Of a stretch of 33,582 nt of DNA, positions 6,528 through 16,564 are shown piece after piece. Source of the DNA: Candidatus Sigynarchaeum calidifontis (GTDB lineage: Archaea; Asgardarchaeota; Lokiarchaeia; Sigyniarchaeales; Sigyniarchaeaceae). The stretch covers positions 1-33,582 of the forward strand of contig JAUQYZ020000266.1 in NCBI GenBank assembly GCA_030587475.2, in the 5' to 3' direction. A program made the translations under genes and the position numbers. The stretch's first letter is position 1. Every line of letters begins with the position of its first letter. A model generated the notes under the pieces. That model was not told the DNA's origin. It saw only the letters and a list, made by a program, of their open reading frames with translations, and searched no databases.

Positions 6528-6761
6528 CACCCTCAGCTCGTTGGATGAGAGTTTCATTCTAATATGGTGGAAATTGAATATATATCTGATTCCAAGGAAG
6601 AAGGTATACTCCCTCCAACATCAATAAGATAAGATTTGTAATCCGGATTGTTGGGCGAGCAACATGAGGGATCGGGAATTGCCTAGATGTTTTGTTTAAG
6701 GCAAAAATATTTGTTGGTGAATCCGGTATCTCCTTCCAGTACTAGATCGATTAGAAGGGAC

Positions 6762-7880
6762 ATGATCCAACAGATCATCTCGGCCATGCAGCGCACGGGC
6801 TGGATAATCATCGATTTCTCCGGCAACGATGCCACGATTCGGATAGTGGGCAACAAGGACGTGGAACAAGTTCTCGAGATCGATGTAAGTGCCAAGTGTT
6901 TCGACTTGATCGCGAAAAATAAAGATATGACCCTTATCATCAAGTATATCGACAACATCGACAATTTTAGCAAAGAAAAATCGGAGGAGTTACTTAACAT
7001 AGCTCACATTTTCAACTCCGTGCCGCTCATCATCGGGGAAAGAAACAGGAACGGCAATCTCGAGAACAATATCTTGTATAACCGGTATCAAATCAACGCG
7101 CTCAATTTCACCACATTTGCGAGCGTCCTAGAGAAGAAGGAGTTTCCTCGCGTCTACAGCCAGCGAGGCGGGTATTTCGTGCAGATAAAAACCAAGGAGT
7201 TCAAGGAACTGCGACAATCCCGAAATTTATCGCTCGCGGACATTGCAAAGAAACTTAAACTCACGCCGAAAGCAGTATATGAATATGAATCGAATAACAT
7301 GAAGACCCGGCTCGCTCATTTCGAGGAAATGGCCCGGATCTTCAAGTTTAGCCAGCAAGAGTTCTTGCGCCAGTTTTCGGAGACGATAGACATCTTCGTG
7401 AAGCTCTACAAGTCCAATTACGAGACGATTCGGGATCTAGTGGGTTTCCAGCAAGAGATCGATCACCGGTTGACCGAGCTCGGGTTCATCACGTACTGGT
7501 TCAACAAGGCACCGATCGACATGTCGTTCGAGGATGCCACGAGCGACCGGGTCATTAATCAAAGCCTCGAGAAGGAGAAACCGCTTGCTGAGTCGAGGAA
7601 CATATTCATCTCGGAGATCTCATCGGTCAAAGAGGCAGGGGCCAGCGACCTCGCGCGAACGATCAAGAACACGGAGAAGAAGCTGGAAAAACACGTGGCC
7701 TTCTTGAAGGAATTTGGCAAGGTATTGGAGACCAAGTGTAACATGGTTGTATTACTCGATGATCAGTTGTTCCAGGATTTGAAACACGTGCACGGCATCC
7801 CCATCATCCATGAACACGAGATACCGTCGAACGCGGAAAAATTGAAAAAGATCATTCTCGATCGAAAGCATACCAGTTGA
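6762..7880 (+). CDS. Archaeal HTH transcriptional regulator, COG1395-like (restriction-endonuclease-like N domain + Cro/C1 HTH)
   Basis: CFDLIAK..LIIK...NID, PLIIGER, VYSQRGGYFVQI, then HTH LRQSRNLSLADIAKKLKLTPKAVYEYE. ATG 6762 follows AGAAGGGA. Confidence 0.8.
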   Translation: MIQQIISAMQRTGWIIIDFSGNDATIRIVGNKDVEQVLEIDVSAKCFDLIAKNKDMTLIIKYIDNIDNFSKEKSEELLNIAHIFNSVPLIIGERNRNGNLENNILYNRYQINALNFTTFASVLEKKEFPRVYSQRGGYFVQIKTKEFKELRQSRNLSLADIAKKLKLTPKAVYEYESNNMKTRLAHFEEMARIFKFSQQEFLRQFSETIDIFVKLYKSNYETIRDLVGFQQEIDHRLTELGFITYWFNKAPIDMSFEDATSDRVINQSLEKEKPLAESRNIFISEISSVKEAGASDLARTIKNTEKKLEKHVAFLKEFGKVLETKCNMVVLLDDQLFQDLKHVHGIPIIHEHEIPSNAEKLKKIILDRKHTS

Positions 7881-8570
7881 GTGCACGTGGAACTGATAGT
7901 GGGCGGTGCTGACGAGGCAGGACGCGGGCCGGTACTCGGCCCGATGGTCGTCTGTGCCGCGTGTTTCCGCGAGGCTGATATACCCAACCTACACGACCAA
8001 GGAGTGACAGATTCGAAGCAGCTTAGCCCGAAGCGGCGGGAGGAACTCTATGAGATCATCACGCGCGCGGCGCTCTGCTATGAACTCGTGGTGCTCTCGC
8101 CCGTGGAAATCAACGAGGGCATGGCGAGCGGAGAGAACTTGAACGATATCGAGGTGGCCGCGTTTGCAAGGGCCATCAATGCCGTGATCCGTCGAGGCCC
8201 CATCCCTGGCAAGATGTGGATCGACGCGGCGGACGTGAAGCCCGAGCGCTTTGGCGAGCGTGTACAAGGCCTGCTCTCGACGCGCGTGGTGGTCAACGCC
8301 AGTCACAAGGCTGATGCCACGGTCACGGCGGTCGGGGCAGCATCGATCCTCGCGAAGGTGACGCGCGACCGGCTCATCCACGAGCTTTCCAAGCAATACG
8401 GAGACATCGGGTCCGGATATCCGTCCGATCCCAAGACCCGTGCATTCTTGAAAAGCTATTACCAGGATCACGGGAAATTCCCACCAATCGTCAGGACGGA
8501 ATGGGAAACGCTGAAGCAGCTCGAGAAAGAGATGGGCATCCTCCCGAAGGGGCAAACGAGGCTGTTCTGA
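7881..8570 (+). CDS. rnhB: Ribonuclease HII
   Basis: GADEAGRGPVLGPMVV, DSKQL, IDA, HKAD, AASILAKVTRD, GSGYPSDP. Confidence 0.97.
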   Translation: MHVELIVGGADEAGRGPVLGPMVVCAACFREADIPNLHDQGVTDSKQLSPKRREELYEIITRAALCYELVVLSPVEINEGMASGENLNDIEVAAFARAINAVIRRGPIPGKMWIDAADVKPERFGERVQGLLSTRVVVNASHKADATVTAVGAASILAKVTRDRLIHELSKQYGDIGSGYPSDPKTRAFLKSYYQDHGKFPPIVRTEWETLKQLEKEMGILPKGQTRLF

Positions 8571-8574
8571 TCCA

Positions 8575-9279
8575 TCATTCCATCTTGCCCGCGATCATCA
8601 CGTGGTCATCGCTGAACGGGGCGATGTCGCGCAAGTCAACGACGTTGCACCCGGCCTTCGTCAGGATCGCCTTCTCCTTCTGGAAGATGATCTCCGGCTC
8701 GATGGTCACGTCGATCGAGCGAGACTTGATGGCAATGTAGAAGGATCCACCTGGCTTGAGATATGTCTGGATGTTGTCGACGAGCAACTTGGATTGCTCG
8801 GGTTGTGCCACGTCCTGGTAGATGAGATCGACTTGCTCCGGAATCAAGGATCGGTACTGTGCCGGCTTCGTCGCGTCGGCAAATATCGGTATGACGTTTT
8901 CCCGGTTCGAGAGTCTCTGCACGAGCTCCCGCAAGCTGCGAGCCGAAAACTCGATCGCGTAGATCCGGCCCGATTTCCCGACGATATCAGACAAGTGGGA
9001 GACCGTCGTGCCGCTCGCGGCGCCGAGGTACAAGATGGACATGCCCTCCTTCAAGTAGTACTCCTTCCCATTTTTGCGGAAATACGCGCATAACTTGCTC
9101 CGGTTCGGGTTCCACTCGCGGTACTCCTCTTGTCCTACCTTGAACAGCCGCTCGCCGTACACGTCCGTGCCTGGAACCTGGTTTTTCGTCCCGATGATCT
9201 CGTTCCCATCCACGGTGATCGTGTAGATGCCCTCGAACTTGCCATGGGCTTTGACGGAATACGAGTCGCTTCTCGACAT
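8575..9279 (-). CDS. flpA: Fibrillarin-like rRNA/tRNA 2'-O-methyltransferase
   Basis: VYGE, YREWNPNRSKL, LYLGAASGTTVSHLSD, YQDVAQP, IKSRSIDVT. Confidence 0.97.
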   Translation of the reverse strand: MSRSDSYSVKAHGKFEGIYTITVDGNEIIGTKNQVPGTDVYGERLFKVGQEEYREWNPNRSKLCAYFRKNGKEYYLKEGMSILYLGAASGTTVSHLSDIVGKSGRIYAIEFSARSLRELVQRLSNRENVIPIFADATKPAQYRSLIPEQVDLIYQDVAQPEQSKLLVDNIQTYLKPGGSFYIAIKSRSIDVTIEPEIIFQKEKAILTKAGCNVVDLRDIAPFSDDHVMIAGKME

Positions 9280-9285
9280 CGACGA

Positions 9286-10818
9286 TCACTCCTTTCCTTG
9301 TCCACGCTTTCCCTTGGGTGGATACTTTCCCCCGGTCCTTCCCCCGCTGCCCTGGTTGAATGACTTGTTTCCGGGACCTGTCGGCTTGTATGGTCGTGGC
9401 CCTCCACCACCCTTTCCCTTTGATGACCATTGGTGGTCGGCGCGGGCGCCGCTTTTCTTGGAGGGCAGTGAGCTTGAACTGCCTTGTCGTTGCTTGAATT
9501 TACCAGGCCTTCGATCGCGCTGCGGCTCGCCTGACCGTGGCTTTCGCTGCCACTGTTCGGTTCGGGCAGATGGGGGGCGCTCCTTCACTTGTGCCGGCTT
9601 GTCAGGATATTTTCTCTGGATTTCCGCGAGCTTGCTGCGGACATCCGCGAGAAGCTCGTCACCGATGTATCGCTTGCTGATTTGATCGACCCGCGCGGCG
9701 ATCGAGATTTTACCAGCGAGCAAACGTGCGATCTTGCCTCGCTGCCAAAATGGGGCGGACCGGACCTCTTTTGCTTGGAAAAGAATCCCATGCTTTGGTG
9801 GCTCGCTATTCGTTTTGATCGAACGAAACAGCGCTTTCTCCGCGCCGAGGACCTGGATCGTCGAGCTTGGCTTCTTTGCCAGTGCTTCGAGCCCGCCCGC
9901 GAGGCAAATCAGCCTGGCGCCGAGTATCGGGCCAACGACGGCCGATAAATTTGGACAAGTTTGTTCCATCAATGATTCGACGTAATTCTCTATTTTTATG
10001 CGTGTCTTGTATAGATCGAGCACGCTGCTGGCAAATGCTTGCACGGTCTTGATATCAAAGGGTGAGAAATCACCACCCATGGATTCCTTGGCACGCTTGA
10101 CCATGATCTCCACTGTCTTGTCTTGCACGGGGCGCAGTGCCTTTATCCGGTCAGGAGAGAATTCTTCCCGCGTGCCAATGTTCGTGATGATTTCGAGGAA
10201 AAACTCGTGATCCGCGACGAGCTGGTCGGTTAACTCGGGGAAATGGTAGCCATACCATTCGCGGATGCGTTCAGAAAATATATTCGTGCTCTTGTTGATA
10301 TCATCGATGGAATTCACGGCTTGCATGATGAGCCGGTCGTTTTGTTCCGAGACGGACTTGATCTGCAGCTTCGTGAGTTCCACGTTGACCGCGCGGTTGA
10401 ATGCATAAAACTCGCCAGCGTTCCACGCGCTCCCCACCTTCTCGAGAAACGACACGATATCTTGCCGGAAGGCGACGCCCGCCCTCGTCGATTTCGCAAG
10501 GAAGAGGCGCCCCGGGACTTTCCCGTCGAGCAGGTTATAGAGAAACTCGTCTTCTACCTCGAGGACGTCCCTGCCAGGCGCTGCCTTCATGTAATCCGCT
10601 ATCTTGACGATGATCTCATCGAGCTCGGTATGGGGTGTCGCCAATTTCAAGGCAAGCATCACGTGTGCGACCGTTTCGGCATCACGCTTCAACTCGTGGC
10701 GGACTACTACATTCCCTTGCTCGTCCGTCGCGGCGACGCCGCACGCGGTGCAAATAAGGGAGAGACCCACGTTTACCAACCATCTGCTTGTTCTGTTTCC
10801 ACTATAAAGGAATGTCAC
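9286..10818 (-). CDS. nop5: Box C/D sRNP protein Nop5 (Nop56/58) with long basic/Gly-rich C-terminal tail
   Basis: ERIREWYGYHFPEL, CPNLSAVVG..LGARLI, PSSTIQVLGAEKALF, PPKHG, RGKIARLLAGK..IAARVD. True start may be GTG 10770. Confidence 0.95.
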   Translation of the reverse strand: MTFLYSGNRTSRWLVNVGLSLICTACGVAATDEQGNVVVRHELKRDAETVAHVMLALKLATPHTELDEIIVKIADYMKAAPGRDVLEVEDEFLYNLLDGKVPGRLFLAKSTRAGVAFRQDIVSFLEKVGSAWNAGEFYAFNRAVNVELTKLQIKSVSEQNDRLIMQAVNSIDDINKSTNIFSERIREWYGYHFPELTDQLVADHEFFLEIITNIGTREEFSPDRIKALRPVQDKTVEIMVKRAKESMGGDFSPFDIKTVQAFASSVLDLYKTRIKIENYVESLMEQTCPNLSAVVGPILGARLICLAGGLEALAKKPSSTIQVLGAEKALFRSIKTNSEPPKHGILFQAKEVRSAPFWQRGKIARLLAGKISIAARVDQISKRYIGDELLADVRSKLAEIQRKYPDKPAQVKERPPSARTEQWQRKPRSGEPQRDRRPGKFKQRQGSSSSLPSKKSGARADHQWSSKGKGGGGPRPYKPTGPGNKSFNQGSGGRTGGKYPPKGKRGQGKE

Positions 10819-10849
10819 TTATATTAACTATGTTTTCGAATGGTGTATC

Positions 10850-11929
10850 ATGCCGAAAGATTGCGTGGGTATCGTCTATTCCCCAAAATACCTGGATCAC
10901 CAGACAGGCTCGCACGTGGAATCGCCGGAACGCCTCGTCGCGACCATGGATCTCATCAAGAGCGAAAAGCTGCTCGAATCGCCCAAGTTCAGGTTGATCG
11001 AGCCGAGGACAGCCACGATCGAAGAGATCAAGATGATACACGACGCGAGCATGATCGAGTACGCCCGCAAGCAGTCGCTCGAGGCGAAAGGCGGCTCTCT
11101 GAAGCTGCTCGATGGTGGCGATACCGTCGTGAGCGAGCGATCTTTCGAAGTAGCCTTGCTCGCGGCCGGCGGGGCGATAACAGCAGCCGATGCCGTCTTG
11201 AGCGGCGAGGTATCGAGCGCTTTCGCCCTGGTTAGACCGCCTGGCCACCATGCGAACGCCAGCCGTTCATCTGGCTTTTGCATCTTCAACAACATGGCCA
11301 TCCTGGCGGAGTATCTCATCAAGCAAAAAGGATTCAAGAGGGTCGGGATCTTCGACATCGACCTGCACCATGGGAACGGCACGTCGGAGATCTTCTACGA
11401 TCGCAACGACGTGCTCTTCTTTAGCAGCCATCAAGATCCCCGAACGCAATATCCCGGCACGGGCTTCGCCTCGGACATCGGTGAAGGGCCGGGCAAGGGC
11501 TACAACATCAACGCCCCCCTCGCCCCCGGCGCGGGCGATGACGTGGTCCAGCTCATCTTCTCGCAGGTCATCAAGCCAGTCTTCGAGCAATACAAGCCCC
11601 AAATCCTGCTCGGTTCGTTCGGCGGCGACGCGCATTATTCGGATCCGCTGTCCGGCTTGTCCTTCACGACGCAAGGATACGGGCATTACGTCGAGGGCTT
11701 CAAGAAGATAGCCGACAAGTGCTGCGATGGAAAGATGGTCATCCTGCTGGAAGGCGGGTATCGTGTCAAGGTGCTGGCACAGAGCATCGTGAACATCTTG
11801 AACGTGCTCGCGGGGCAAGAAATGCCATTCGTGGAAGGCGAGCACGAATCCGGGGAAAGCATCATGGATTACCATATAAACTTGGCCAAGAAGCTGCAAG
11901 AGCACTTGAAACCGTATTGGACGTTTTAA
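10850..11929 (+). CDS. Zn-dependent histone deacetylase family protein (HDAC/AcuC/AphA)
   Basis: HVESPERL, RPPGHHA, SGFCIFNN, DIDLHHGNGT, DAHYSDPL, LEGGY all intact. Confidence 0.95.
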   Translation: MPKDCVGIVYSPKYLDHQTGSHVESPERLVATMDLIKSEKLLESPKFRLIEPRTATIEEIKMIHDASMIEYARKQSLEAKGGSLKLLDGGDTVVSERSFEVALLAAGGAITAADAVLSGEVSSAFALVRPPGHHANASRSSGFCIFNNMAILAEYLIKQKGFKRVGIFDIDLHHGNGTSEIFYDRNDVLFFSSHQDPRTQYPGTGFASDIGEGPGKGYNINAPLAPGAGDDVVQLIFSQVIKPVFEQYKPQILLGSFGGDAHYSDPLSGLSFTTQGYGHYVEGFKKIADKCCDGKMVILLEGGYRVKVLAQSIVNILNVLAGQEMPFVEGEHESGESIMDYHINLAKKLQEHLKPYWTF

Positions 11930-11947: not shown

Positions 11948-13336
11948 TTAGAAGAGATCGACGAGCTTGCTCAGCAGCTTGAGCACCTCCTCTCCTTTCT
12001 CCGTGAGCTTGTAGATCGTGCGGCCTTGTTCATCTTTCGACGTCACGAAACTCTTTTCCTCCATTTGCTTCAAGTGATGGTACACGCTCTGCTTGGTGCA
12101 TTGAACCTCCTTGGAAATGGACGCGTGAATCTTGTACCCGTGCAAACCCGCTTCTCCAGCGTGCTTCAATTGATCCAGGATCTTCAGCCGGAGGTTCATC
12201 TTCGTCCGGACGAACAAGTCCGAGTTGGTCACCCTGCTGATCAAGGCGTCGATGACGTTCGGCGCTTTCAAGCCGGTTCCGGTGAGGATCACGACGCGCT
12301 TCAGGCCCGATTCCCGGTTTTCTCGCTTTTTCAGCGCTGCAAACGCGGCGGCCGTGGCCGGTTCGACAAAAAGGCCTTCTACACGTGCAAGCGTGGAGAT
12401 CGCGCTCGTGATCTCGCCTTCCGTGATCTCCATCTTTTCCCCGCCCGATTCCTTGATGGCGTTTTCCATCAGGTCCCGCTGCGAATGTTTCGATTCCATC
12501 AAGGGCGAGATCCGCGGGCCTTCGGTCGAAAGGCTTGCCCCGATCATTTTCGGCACCGAAGGTATGACCCCGCTCGCGTGGAGATCATCGAATCCTTGCC
12601 ATAGCGAAAACAACGTGCCGCCATTGCCGATAGAAATGTACACCTCGTCCGGGACGACCCCGTCCGCCACGATCTCGTGCGATATCGTGGTTTGCGCCAG
12701 CATCGACAAGGGGTTGAATTCGGCGGTCGCCTGGTAACCCCCCTCCGCCAGCTGGTGCTTGAGGCAGTCGTCCATGCTATCGTTCATCGACGGATACGAA
12801 TCGAACAACAAGCCACCGTACGTCTTCACCTGCGACTTTTTTCCGATGTCGATGTTCCTGTCGCTGAAGATCCTCGCGACGAGACCTGCCCTGGCTGCAT
12901 AAGCAGAAACGGACGCGCCCATGTTCCCCGTGCTGGCACAGAACACCTCCTTGCAATGTAAAATCTTCGCATGGGTGACGAGCAACGATGCGGCTCGATC
13001 CCTGTAGGATCGTGTTGGATTCTGGGACTCGTCCTTAAAATAAACGAGGCTCCCAGACCCAGTTCGGTTCTCGGTGGACTCGACCAGCCTCGTGTTGCCC
13101 TCGCCCATGCTGACGCGTTCCTGGAAAAAAGTGGCTGGAAGCACCCGCTTCAAGCTGTCCCAGAACTGCTGCTTTTCCGCGATGCCAGTATCCCACGACG
13201 ACGTGCCCGGACCTGGCACGCGCCGGATAAAGAGGTTCTTGTCACATGTCGGGCACCTGAACAGGGCGTCCGGCGAGTCGATCCGCTCGCCAGGGAGGAC
13301 GTGGCCATCCCAGCATCGCAACTCGAGTTTCTCCAT
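11948..13336 (-). CDS. Threonine-synthase-like fold-type II PLP-domain protein lacking the Schiff-base Lys, fused to a C-terminal PadR/ArsR-like winged HTH; predicted transcription factor
   Basis: N-terminal Zn ribbon (CWDGH..CPTC), SMGEGNT, NPTRSYRDR (canonical NPTGSFKDR), ASTGNMG, IGNGGT, VEPATA, LTGTGLK; last ~83 aa LRLKILDQL..LHGYKI..TKQSVYHHLKQMEEKSFV..YKLTEKG. Confidence 0.85.
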   Translation of the reverse strand: MEKLELRCWDGHVLPGERIDSPDALFRCPTCDKNLFIRRVPGPGTSSWDTGIAEKQQFWDSLKRVLPATFFQERVSMGEGNTRLVESTENRTGSGSLVYFKDESQNPTRSYRDRAASLLVTHAKILHCKEVFCASTGNMGASVSAYAARAGLVARIFSDRNIDIGKKSQVKTYGGLLFDSYPSMNDSMDDCLKHQLAEGGYQATAEFNPLSMLAQTTISHEIVADGVVPDEVYISIGNGGTLFSLWQGFDDLHASGVIPSVPKMIGASLSTEGPRISPLMESKHSQRDLMENAIKESGGEKMEITEGEITSAISTLARVEGLFVEPATAAAFAALKKRENRESGLKRVVILTGTGLKAPNVIDALISRVTNSDLFVRTKMNLRLKILDQLKHAGEAGLHGYKIHASISKEVQCTKQSVYHHLKQMEEKSFVTSKDEQGRTIYKLTEKGEEVLKLLSKLVDLF

Positions 13337-13391
13337 CTATATCCGCCGTTGATCGTGGCAAGAGGGATTTTTCAGCCCTTGCAAACACGTT

Positions 13392-14117
13392 TTAATAGAT
13401 AAACAAGACTTGTGCCTTTTGCACGGCGTGGTACACGGGTATGGCGACGATGATGCCCACCAGCGACTGTACCACGTTCCACGGCAGGCTCGCGGCGGCC
13501 CCAGCAGCCAACAACACGAACGCGTCGTAGACAAAATACCCGCCGAACATGACCACGCCACCCGCGAGCAGCGATAGAACCATGTAATATATCGGGATCT
13601 TGCCGCGCAAGATGGACACGAAAACGACGACGATGAAAAAGGAGCCGATGACGATCCAGAGGATCGTGGCACCCGGGTCGTAATTGACCCCGATGATGAT
13701 GACCGCCGCGGCGATCAAGAAACCGCTCATGAGCACGCGCATCGTGGTCTTCCCGCTGCGCAGCTTGTCCTCGGTGATGCTCGATTTGAAGTGCTTGAAC
13801 AGTGTCCCGGCGATGAATCCCTCGACGAACTTGAGGACGAGGGTCGCGGGGATGTATTGCGGGGCCAGGATGATATCGCCGAGCATGGCGCCGATGCTTC
13901 CTGCCACCCCGGCCAACAAGGCTCCCAGGGGAACCCTGGTCCCGCGTGCAGTGATGGGGCCCAATAACAGCGCGGCAAGGTATATCACCGCCTCGCCAAG
14001 ATTGAAATAACCGGCTGGAAGCGGTGGTGCAAGAACGACCGTGGCGACCGTGGTCAAGGCCGTGAAAGTGGCGGCGAATGCGATCCACAAGGTCACCTTT
14101 TTTGGATTTTCTGGCAC
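13392..14117 (-). CDS. ECF transporter substrate-specific S component
   Basis: TALTTVAT..P..GYFNLGEAVIYLAALLLGP, GSIGAMLGDII..YIPATLVLKFVEGFIAG, SLPWNVVQSLVG; highly hydrophobic. GTG start. Confidence 0.88.
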   Translation of the reverse strand: MPENPKKVTLWIAFAATFTALTTVATVVLAPPLPAGYFNLGEAVIYLAALLLGPITARGTRVPLGALLAGVAGSIGAMLGDIILAPQYIPATLVLKFVEGFIAGTLFKHFKSSITEDKLRSGKTTMRVLMSGFLIAAAVIIIGVNYDPGATILWIVIGSFFIVVVFVSILRGKIPIYYMVLSLLAGGVVMFGGYFVYDAFVLLAAGAAASLPWNVVQSLVGIIVAIPVYHAVQKAQVLFIY

Positions 14118-14135: not shown

Positions 14136-14177
14136 CTAGTCAACTCTCCGTTGACTAGTCAAAAACAAATTGACTAG
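14136..14177. promoter_or_regulatory. Two interlocked palindromic operators CTAGTCAA-N7-TTGACTAG (14136-14158 and 14155-14177)
   Basis: ctagtcaa-ctctccg-ttgactag and ctagtcaa-aaacaaa-ttgactag: identical arms and spacer length, different spacer sequence. They lie between the TATA box and the ECF start codon. Confidence 0.85.
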
Positions 14178-14222: not shown

Positions 14223-15335
14223 ATGAAAGCTCACGAGCGCATCTGGAAGGCATTGTGCCACGAGGAACCCGACCGGGTTCCCACGTTCACCCAATCCATC
14301 GAGGACCCGTTCGTCCGGCGGTTTGACGAGCAAGTCGGCATCGAAGACGAGGCGGGGCTGTTCCCCGACATGACCATGGACATGATCCTGGCCCGTCAGC
14401 TTGGTTTCGATTCCAAGTGGATCCACTTGCAAGGGGCCTCGCCGCCCGCGAGGGATTACCCGGCGGAGTTACCACCCCTGCCCGAGGACCAGTGGGCGGG
14501 CAAGTCAGGCCAGATCCACGTGCGCAGCAAGGATGGCTCGAAATCGTGGTATTATGACGGGGCACTCAAGACCCCCGAACTGGTAAAGGCATGGATCCCG
14601 TACGTGAAAGATTTCAACATACCCGATGCCAATTATTACAGGCACATCAAGAAAACGTGGGACGTGGGCTGTGCCAAGGACATCGTCCCGATCCCCACGG
14701 CCGGCGCCCCGACCATGGCCACGTGGGCATCCATCGGCATGCGCAGGTTCTCGTACATGACGCGCAAGCATCCCGAGCTCGTCCACGGGCTCATCAACGC
14801 GTGGTGCGACGTGACCATCGAGGAGCACAAGTGCATTTTCGAGGCTGGTATCCCGTACGTGTTCATCTGCGACGACCACGCGCAGAAAGAGCGGCTCATG
14901 ATGAGCCCGGCGGACTGGGAGCGGTTCGTGGAGCCTGTCTACAAGCGGCTCGCCAACAACGCCCACAAGCACGGCGCCAAGTTCCTCGTCCACACCGACG
15001 GGAACTTGAACGAGTCGTTCCCCGGCATGTACCGCGCTGGCGTCGACGCCGCGGAACCGCTCGAGTACGAGGCCGGCATGCGACTGAAACCGCTCAAGGA
15101 GAAGTTCGGCGACAAGATCACGCTGATCGGGAACGTGCCCTCGTCGGAAGCACTGTGCCTGGGCTCGGTCGAGTTCACGGTCGAGATCACGAAGCAATGC
15201 ATCAAGGACGCCGCGGCGGGTGGCGGGTTGATCCTCGCCCCGGGTGCCAACATCCTCGCCACGGCCAAGATCGAGAATGTCAAGGCGCTCATCGAGACCA
15301 ATAAAAAGTACGGGACGTATCCCATAAAAATTTAA
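14223..15335 (+). CDS. Uroporphyrinogen decarboxylase / MtaA-CmuA methyltransferase superfamily protein
   Basis: ERIWKALCHEEPDRVP, ICDDHAQK..MMSP..W, VHTDGN, PLEYEAGM..LKEKFGDKITLIGNV, GGGLILAPG. Confidence 0.85.
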   Translation: MKAHERIWKALCHEEPDRVPTFTQSIEDPFVRRFDEQVGIEDEAGLFPDMTMDMILARQLGFDSKWIHLQGASPPARDYPAELPPLPEDQWAGKSGQIHVRSKDGSKSWYYDGALKTPELVKAWIPYVKDFNIPDANYYRHIKKTWDVGCAKDIVPIPTAGAPTMATWASIGMRRFSYMTRKHPELVHGLINAWCDVTIEEHKCIFEAGIPYVFICDDHAQKERLMMSPADWERFVEPVYKRLANNAHKHGAKFLVHTDGNLNESFPGMYRAGVDAAEPLEYEAGMRLKPLKEKFGDKITLIGNVPSSEALCLGSVEFTVEITKQCIKDAAAGGGLILAPGANILATAKIENVKALIETNKKYGTYPIKI

Positions 15336-15363: not shown

Positions 15364-16509
15364 CTACACGTTCAAGGGGTATTTACCCCATTTCTTCACG
15401 GCTTCTATCATTGCCAAGCCGTTCTCGAACTTGCACGCGTCCGTGAGGTCCGTGCACGGGCTCACGATGTATCCACCGCCGTGCCCCGCATCGCGGATCA
15501 TCTGCTTGACCGCGGCTTCCACGTCGGCCGGCGTGCCGAAGGGGAGCAGCCGGGAGCAATCGACGTTGCCGATGAGCGTGAGCTTGTCGCCAAAGGTTTC
15601 CTTAAGATGCTTGAGGTCCATGCCCGCGCCGGGTTCCAGGCTCTCCACGCCGTCGAAGCCAGCTTCGATGAGGCCTGGGAACAAGGGCTCGGTGAAGCCA
15701 TCCGAATGGAAGAAGACCTTCTTGTCCTTGCTCACCTTGTGGATTTCGCCGACGATTTGCTTGTAGAGCGGGATGATGAGTTCACGGTGCGCCTTCGGGG
15801 AGATGTACGTGCTGCCCTTGTACGCTTGGTCGTCGGCCAGGCTGTAAACGTCGTAATCCAGCTTCGCCATGACCTTGGCGCTCTCGATCGCGTGTTTCGC
15901 GTAGGCCTCGTGGATCCGCTTGAGCTTTTGGGGTTTCTTGATGAGCAACCTTGAGTATAGTTCCGGCGTCATGCCCTCGAAGACGCCCTCGAACACGCCT
16001 CCGCCGGCGCCGCCCACCGGCACGAAGCGCCCGTCGCCGACGGTTTGCTTGATGTGTTCGTTCATGTTCTTGATGACGTCGTCGGAAGGAGGCTTGTATT
16101 CGATGTCGAACCAGTAGTGCTCGTACCACTCGTCGACCGCCTCCTCGGTCGTCAAGTACGGGCCGATGTACCAGCTATAGGGATGACCATTCATGGTCGT
16201 GGTCTTGTGCAAACGGCCAGTCAAGTCGATGGACACGCCCGGTTCCTTGATGGACGGCAGTGGGTATTCGTTAAGACGATTAACAGTGGGCGATGCGCCG
16301 AGTCCCGCGGCGCCCCACGACATGTCGAAGCCCATTCTCTTGTAAAGGGTAAAGTCTTTTCCCAGGAAAATCACGTCCAGATCATCCTCGTCAGCCCACG
16401 ATTTTTCCATCCGATCGTAGAACACGGGCATGATCGACTGGACAAAAATCGGCACCCGGTCGGGCTCCTCGTGATCGAACGCCGCGAGGACGCGTTCTCT
16501 GCTGTTCAT
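15364..16509 (-). CDS. Second UroD/MtaA superfamily protein, convergent paralog
   Basis: MNSRERVLAAFDHEEPDRVP, LADDQAYK..ISP, FHSDG, LEPGAGMD..LKETFGDKLTLIGNVD, GGGYIVSP. Confidence 0.87.
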   Translation of the reverse strand: MNSRERVLAAFDHEEPDRVPIFVQSIMPVFYDRMEKSWADEDDLDVIFLGKDFTLYKRMGFDMSWGAAGLGASPTVNRLNEYPLPSIKEPGVSIDLTGRLHKTTTMNGHPYSWYIGPYLTTEEAVDEWYEHYWFDIEYKPPSDDVIKNMNEHIKQTVGDGRFVPVGGAGGGVFEGVFEGMTPELYSRLLIKKPQKLKRIHEAYAKHAIESAKVMAKLDYDVYSLADDQAYKGSTYISPKAHRELIIPLYKQIVGEIHKVSKDKKVFFHSDGFTEPLFPGLIEAGFDGVESLEPGAGMDLKHLKETFGDKLTLIGNVDCSRLLPFGTPADVEAAVKQMIRDAGHGGGYIVSPCTDLTDACKFENGLAMIEAVKKWGKYPLNV

Positions 16510-16564
16510 GATGTACCCTCGATCGGTCGCAATCAATAAAAACGGCATCGAAAGAGAATTGAAT

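Follow-up and report, generated by a model that had tools for sequence, protein, structure and literature searches.

Contig JAUQYZ020000266.1 of the Asgard archaeon Candidatus Sigynarchaeum calidifontis (assembly GCA_030587475.2), analyzed here as a window of 33,582 nucleotides, carries a gene on the reverse strand (11948-13336) for a protein of 462 residues. Read from its open reading frame and translation, the protein joins a zinc-ribbon-like N-terminus of the CHCC type and a domain resembling threonine synthase (ThrC), from which the Schiff-base lysine of pyridoxal 5'-phosphate (PLP) enzymes is missing, to a C-terminal winged helix-turn-helix (wHTH) of the PadR type. Directly upstream and on the same strand is the gene for the S-component of an energy-coupling factor (ECF) transporter (13392-14117), its likely target and operon partner, and a candidate operator precedes that gene. 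The identical 462-residue protein is found on four contigs, and its relatives are labeled "threonine synthase" by their sources. Here, we present evidence that loss of the lysine is shared by the family to which this protein belongs, and that the protein is probably a regulator that senses vitamin B6.

All three parts of the protein can be placed on the reverse strand of the window. The zinc-ribbon-like element (C8/H12/C28/C31; 13244-13315) was delimited from alignments A1 and A2, in which the three cysteines are strictly or almost strictly conserved; position 12 is histidine in the close-clade consensus of A2. The central domain, a fold-type II PLP fold that is the candidate sensor, spans residues 75-351 (12284-13114) and matches the Pfam PALP family PF00291 with E=5e-48. 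At residues 390-453 (11978-12169), the Pfam search placed the PadR family PF03551 (33.6 bits; cut-off 27), which bears out the earlier suggestion that a wHTH closes the protein, and the same search gave no GntR match. An AlphaFold (AF2) model built on 69 relatives has a predicted local distance difference test score (pLDDT) of 90.7 and a predicted template modeling score of 0.82, and its wHTH region shows helices at 400-407 and 415-427 followed by a beta wing at 431-436 and 439-444. Solved ThrCs (2d1f, 2zsj and 6cgq) were matched by phmmer at E values of about 1e-35 with 28-30% identity, and in Foldseek the core of the model aligned to the ThrC structures 1uin, 6nmx and 2zsj with a template modeling score of about 0.80. 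The best NCBIfam match is the threonine synthase model PRK05638 (NF004170), whose profile already extends over the wHTH (profile positions 45-440 of 442), with a score of 194.9 against a cut-off of 421; TIGR00260 scores 93.8 against 167.1, and the remaining ThrC models likewise fall below their cut-offs. A homodimer formed through the ThrC-like domain is also predicted, with a score of 0.77 compared with 0.00 for the best control. Of the proteins solved as pairs of one chain, 20 of 30 come up to the mark applied to this score, compared with 1 of 23 among those whose structures are single chains. Across the runs, contact agreement was at least 44% and partner pLDDT at least 83.

Fold-type II enzymes require the Schiff-base lysine for the internal aldimine. 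A sequence-only reading of this window had proposed that the lysine is replaced by arginine while the rest of the PLP pocket is kept, and the replacement itself is confirmed. Translation and alignment place the motif NPTRSYRDR (residues 106-114; 12995-13021, reverse strand) where ThrC has NPTGSFKDR, and the phmmer alignment pairs R112, encoded by AGG at 13003-13001, with the lysine of that motif in all three of the solved ThrCs named above. AGG is one base away from AAG, and the same reading therefore allowed for a sequencing error or a private mutation, in which case the true codon would be AAG and the domain that of an ordinary enzyme. That explanation now has next to no probability. All 36 fused homologs at close or intermediate distance whose sequence includes the site have arginine (33-85% identity, with the pattern S-[YF]-R-D-R); they came from a word-indexed search and belong to Asgard archaea, Bathyarchaeia and Geothermarchaeales. 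Orthologous loci spell the arginine as AGG, AGA or CGT, and the last of these is more than one change from any lysine codon, so the residue is not a sequencing error. Arginine is likewise found in all 80 species loci that we scored for gene neighbors, a set that the search pattern biases to Arg-type proteins, and in 57 of 67 members of one subclade of the tree described next; the exact protein also recurs on separate contigs. A genome scan with patterns drawn from the Arg-clade alignment A2, including NPT[NRK]SYRDR, located relatives encoded in 135 species genomes.

For a residue census and a tree, 267 homologs from two protein searches were aligned, and the tree was computed with FastTree with the lysine column masked and was rooted on bacterial-type ThrC. 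Homologs without the C-terminal extension keep the lysine in 148 of 148 cases. The wHTH-fused proteins form a single clade with support 0.946, made up of 112 fused proteins and three fragments (115 tips), and at the position of R112 these carry arginine in 57 tips, isoleucine, leucine, valine or methionine in 45, another residue in 10 and lysine in only three; at least 12 residue types occur there. General retention of the lysine by fused homologs, which would have spoken against the sequence-only reading, is thus not what the alignment shows. Midpoint rooting had made the fused group appear paraphyletic, an artifact of one unrelated 602-residue protein that disappears with the bacterial-type ThrC root. 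Two subclades make up the clade. Subclade A (48 tips, support 0.973) has the 45 hydrophobic residues together with two threonines and one asparagine, while subclade B (67 tips) has the 57 arginines, the three lysines and rare serine, tyrosine, threonine, histidine, phenylalanine and alanine; elsewhere in the analysis the arginine group is counted as 58. The 462-residue protein sits within subclade B in a clade of 19 tips that are all arginine, with support 1.0. Lysine loss therefore tracks with the fusion (lysine in 3 of 115 tips of the fused clade compared with 148 of 148 unfused homologs), but the arginine is specific to one subclade. As judged from this alignment and tree, the ThrC-wHTH fusion family is characterized by absence of the lysine, for which one of its subclades has arginine as the conserved solution.

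The three tips with lysine (P0122, P0134 and P0196) are nested in subclade B and have the motifs NPTNSFKDR and NPTSSFKDR. P0196 is a fragment; the other two are fused proteins of full length and still lack the NPxR arginine discussed below. The lysines of all three may be single-step reversions from arginine, and these proteins would be natural controls for a model of non-covalent binding. The genome of Candidatus Sigynarchaeum calidifontis also encodes a second ThrC paralog without the lysine, on contig C32 (L010:1489-2757), with the motif NPTGSYIDR in which isoleucine replaces lysine. This paralog of 422 residues has the PALP domain only and no wHTH. Immediately upstream of its gene are a small ribbon-helix-helix gene of the CopG type and a fragment that is HAD-like, and the arrangement may represent the pairing of sensor and DNA binder as separate proteins.

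The claim that the rest of the PLP pocket is kept was right for one side of the pocket only. The motifs expected to hold the cofactor are present, namely ASTGNMG at residues 134-140, the cofactor-phosphate loop GNGGT at residues 237-241 (12614-12628, reverse strand), EP at 325-326 and LTGTGLK at 351-357. Within the Arg clade neither G237 nor G239 varies, and G239 does not vary anywhere in the fused family. Nearly all positions conserved in ThrC persist across the fused clade, namely K101, E103, N106-P107-T108, S110, D113-R114, G137-N138, K166, Q169, E221, G237, G239, E325-P326, T352 and G355-L356-K357. On the other side, ThrC has an arginine in an NPxR motif which, in the Thermus thermophilus ThrC structures, binds the phosphate of the substrate O-phosphohomoserine. 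This position is S211 here, is serine, valine, threonine or alanine in the Arg clade, and is leucine, phenylalanine or isoleucine in the sister clade. The Arg clade has in addition its own invariant residues D163, T204, E206 and S244. In the sequences compared, the cofactor side of the pocket is retained and the substrate side remodeled. The fold search also returned Lys-to-Ala mutants of fold-type II enzymes. One of them, 3vsc (O-phosphoserine sulfhydrylase K127A), is titled as having pyridoxal in an external Schiff base, and the title of another, 3x44 (K43A), mentions a bound substrate. By its title, 3vsc at least shows that PLP can still be held, as an external Schiff base with substrate, once the lysine is gone.

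These observations bear on whether the protein could still be a catalyst, that is, a threonine synthase or another PLP enzyme that works without the canonical lysine and to which the wHTH is an add-on. The retention of most ThrC-conserved residues, the "threonine synthase" labels and the best NCBIfam match to PRK05638 all speak for such an enzyme. However, arginine can neither form the internal aldimine nor replace lysine in transaldimination, the arginine for the substrate phosphate is lost, the profile scores lie far below curated cut-offs, position 112 drifts over many residue types, and an ordinary ThrC with NPTGSFKDR is encoded on contig C132 of the same genome. We regard a catalytic role as highly improbable, and by three criteria (the Schiff-base lysine, the curated cut-offs and the NPxR arginine) the protein is predicted not to be a threonine synthase. 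A dead enzyme domain could alternatively serve the PadR domain as a dimerization scaffold that binds no ligand, which would agree with the predicted dimer interface through the ThrC-like domain and with the tolerance of many residues at the lysine position. Against this, the GNGGT loop, G137-N138, E325-P326 and T352-K357, not all of which are at the interface, are invariant or nearly so across 26-86% identity, and the invariant residues that the Arg clade has of its own in the pocket region would, like these, not be needed by a pure scaffold. We therefore consider a scaffold improbable.

The genes next to the regulator are informative about what it may sense. The S-component encoded at 13392-14117 scores 61.3 bits on PF07155 (cut-off 26.7), and its Atlas neighbors are all generic PF07155 clusters. 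PF07155 includes PdxU and PdxU2/HmpT, which are two of the three prokaryotic B6 transporters listed in PMC9997740. In the 80 species loci that were scored, the S-component gene is directly adjacent to the regulator and on the same strand in 73; in three the genes for PLP synthase, pdxS-pdxT, occupy exactly the S-component slot, and neither is present in the remaining four. The pair of regulator and S-component also occurs in L001, L002, L004-L007 and L014-L016. Lokiarchaeia relatives have it within the same wider synteny of genes for a histone deacetylase (HDAC)-like protein, Nop5, fibrillarin and RNase HII, Bathyarchaeia have it in reversed gene order, the pair is divergent in Thorarchaeota, and in other lineages it occurs together with EcfA and EcfT genes. 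A relative of the Val type is divergent from pdxS-pdxT (L017 and L018). We considered whether the type of residue at position 112 is linked to the type of target and rejected the idea, as proteins of both the Arg type and the hydrophobic type adjoin S-components and pdxST.

Several further features of these neighborhoods deserve mention. After the pair, or after pdxST, there is a gene with AIRS and AIRS_C domains at L005:8225-9232 and at the matching position in 63/80 Bathyarchaeia loci (L027-L103). The AIRS protein scores below the cut-offs for ThiL, HypE and SelD (102.6 against 184 for ThiL, and 117.2 against 251.6), and its presence could reflect plain synteny, a link to thiamine or a non-orthologous vitamer kinase. 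A Thorarchaeota locus has an extra PadR-domain gene for 317 residues (L014:3361-4314) beside the S-component gene, in addition to the divergent ThrC-PadR gene of the Ile type. Finally, locus L028 (DATHCJ010000024.1), which is titled "Candidatus Limnocylindrales bacterium", has a Bathyarchaeia-like regulator of the Arg type followed by pdxS-pdxT, which points to an error of binning or to transfer into a bacterium.

No pdxS, pdxJ or pdxK was found in the genome of Candidatus Sigynarchaeum calidifontis, which is 89% complete. An apparent pdxT proved to be HisH, the sole match of the genome to the SNO family, and apparent pdxK matches to Phos_pyr_kin (L019:979-1932 and L020:1408-2409) were a ribokinase, which clears its cut-off with 346.9 bits, and a protein resembling tagatose kinase. 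The genome thus has no recognizable pyridoxal kinase, and if B6 is imported in unphosphorylated form the salvage kinase would be some other protein. An EcfT gene is present on another contig of the genome. Five further genomes that carry the pair of regulator and S-component, two of them complete, also gave no PdxS or PdxJ.

Upstream of the S-component gene, the sequence contains the candidate operator CTAGTCAA-N7-TTGACTAGTCAA-N7-TTGACTAG (14136-14177), which consists of two overlapping palindromes of the form 8-N7-8. It lies between the S-component start codon, GTG at 14117, and a TATA-box-like TTTATAA (14189-14183, reverse strand), a putative promoter element 5 bp upstream of the operator. 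When the 5.0-Mb assembly was scanned for TAGTCAA-N7-TTGACTA with at most one mismatch, only these two overlapping sites were detected, and a reversed-pattern control gave none. The ortholog in L001, which is 60% identical, has the same double palindrome with different spacers, located after its own TATA-like box and upstream of the ECF S gene. Bathyarchaeia loci have different conserved palindromes ahead of their S-component genes. From the stop codon of the S-component gene to the start of the regulator gene there is a spacer of 55 bp (13337-13391), which contains an imperfect stem-loop, GCAAGGG and CCCTCTTGC separated by 9 nucleotides, with no T-run; in L001 the S-component and regulator genes overlap by 4 bp and there is no spacer.

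Taking these lines of evidence together, we propose, with a probability of roughly 65%, that the protein is a repressor that senses vitamin B6, most likely as PLP, through non-covalent binding, and that it is analogous but unrelated to bacterial PdxR. A sensor with a non-covalently bound cofactor would fit the retained PLP motifs, the context of S-component and pdxS-pdxT genes, and the titles of 3vsc and 3x44. The protein would be a one-component transcription factor and not an enzyme, with a PLP-fold domain derived from threonine synthase as its sensor. The cofactor would be held by the stacking aromatic Y111, G137-N138, the GNGGT loop, E325-P326 and the stretch from T352 to K357. With R112 in place of lysine there would be no internal aldimine, so the vitamer would bind only non-covalently and reversibly, and occupancy of the pocket would follow the free vitamer pool. 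A dimer formed through the ThrC-like domain would put two PadR wHTHs on the double palindrome, and with vitamer bound the protein would repress both the S-component gene, which encodes a candidate B6 importer, and its own gene further downstream. Relatives that have PLP synthase in place of the importer would use this design to control the synthase.

A number of points weigh against this proposal. The product of the S-component gene has no NCBIfam match and no PDB sequence match beyond chance (E>0.3), and PF07155 also contains riboflavin and other S-components, so that its substrate is predicted only. HmpT was first proposed as a transporter of the thiamine precursor hydroxymethylpyrimidine (HMP), and the Bathyarchaeia with a ThiL/HypE-like AIRS gene after the pair often have a ThiF-like gene upstream, which could indicate thiamine. 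The apparent absence of pdx genes rests on a metagenome-assembled genome that is not complete, and the homodimer prediction may reflect likeness to solved ThrC dimers rather than binding. Fusion and lysine loss have one origin on the tree, and therefore count as one maintained event and not as many independent ones. Lastly, the hydrophobic residues of the sister subclade suggest that a positive charge at position 112 would not be required across the family.

The protein could alternatively be a sensor-regulator for another ligand imported by the S-component, such as HMP, riboflavin or an amino acid, for example threonine or O-phosphohomoserine. Such a ligand would agree with the naming of PF07155 after riboflavin S-components, with the derivation of the domain from an amino-acid enzyme, with the AIRS and ThiF-like genes near Bathyarchaeia pairs and with the early HMP prediction for HmpT. 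On the other hand, in 3 of the 80 loci pdxS-pdxT stands where the S-component gene is otherwise found, and in L017 and L018 it is transcribed divergently from a relative; the PLP motifs are conserved and the phosphate site for O-phosphohomoserine is not, genomes with the pair have no detected PLP synthase, and the AIRS protein scores under the ThiL cut-off. A ligand other than B6 therefore seems unlikely, and B6 sensing is the reading that we prefer.

Downstream of the regulator there is a conserved synteny of Lokiarchaeia, in which genes for the HDAC-like deacetylase (10850-11929), Nop5 (9286-10818), fibrillarin (8575-9279), RNase HII (7881-8570) and an HTH_3 protein (6687-7880) follow in an order (6687-11929) that is common to L001 and L004. 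Two paralogs of the URO-D family, which resemble the methyltransferases MtaA and CmuA, lie around the promoter at 14223-15335 on the forward strand and 15364-16548 on the reverse strand. The first of these is transcribed away from the S-component gene, with the operator in the intergenic region common to the two, and URO-D genes flank the pair in L004 as well.

The arrangement can be compared with several known systems. The regulators of the MocR subfamily, which include PdxR, GabR and TauR, are similar in that a sensor derived from a PLP enzyme is fused to a winged helix, and the same kinds of genes adjoin the ThrC-PadR family as are controlled by PdxR. MocR proteins, however, combine an N-terminal wHTH of the GntR type with a fold-type I domain resembling aminotransferases, whereas the protein described here has a C-terminal PadR wHTH and a fold-type II domain without the lysine, and it is thus a convergent analog of PdxR and not a homolog. 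In bacteria, pdxST, pdxK and the PF07155 transporter gene pdxU make up the regulons of PdxR, and Archaea are reported to have no MocR regulators (PMC5320631). With ThrC the protein shares the fold, the type of N-terminal zinc ribbon and most conserved motifs, and it differs in the arginine at the Schiff-base lysine, the serine at the substrate-phosphate arginine, the sub-cut-off scores and the added DNA-binding domain. With PadR regulators (PF03551) the protein has in common a wHTH that scores above the cut-off and, by prediction, a dimer and an inverted-repeat candidate operator that overlaps the promoter of its own operon, but classical PadR proteins have about 100-200 residues and a C-terminal helical dimerization domain, and here the wHTH is appended to a putative sensor of 370 residues derived from an enzyme. 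A parallel within Archaea is ThiR, the thiamine regulator, in which an inactivated ThiN enzyme domain is joined to a wHTH and which controls genes for synthesis and uptake of the vitamin; it too is a vitamin regulator made from a disabled biosynthetic enzyme domain, and it differs in sensor fold, vitamin and wHTH family. The mutants 3vsc and 3x44 are laboratory Lys-to-Ala variants of enzymes, whereas the loss in the ThrC-PadR family is natural, ancient and maintained.

In the literature that we searched, no paper was found on a ThrC-wHTH regulator or on an archaeal regulator of vitamin B6. New here are the census of position 112, the division of the clade into two, the evidence from codons that the arginine is under selection, the count of 73, 3 and 4 loci in the neighborhood analysis and the operator that is unique in the genome. 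Transporters of B6 have been called a major gap in prokaryotes (PMC5320631, PMC9997740). As a tentative and distinctly speculative extension, the ThrC-PadR proteins of the Arg type might be the missing B6 regulators of Archaea, reading free PLP through a pocket that has become non-covalent in evolution and in which R112, D163, T204, E206 and S244 replace the aldimine link, and the adjacent PF07155 S-component might be the archaeal B6 importer. The AIRS gene of Bathyarchaeia may then be a non-orthologous salvage kinase, and the two subclades may represent two solutions to the same problem or two vitamer specificities.

If the proposal is correct, it would provide candidates for both the regulator and the importer of B6 in Asgard and Bathyarchaeia archaea that are auxotrophic for the vitamin. 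It would also correct annotation, since the labels "threonine synthase" and PLP-dependent enzyme distort reconstructions of threonine synthesis and of B6 dependence. Finally, the family would be a natural case of a PLP-fold domain that has been turned into a reversible sensor of its cofactor by losing the Schiff-base lysine.

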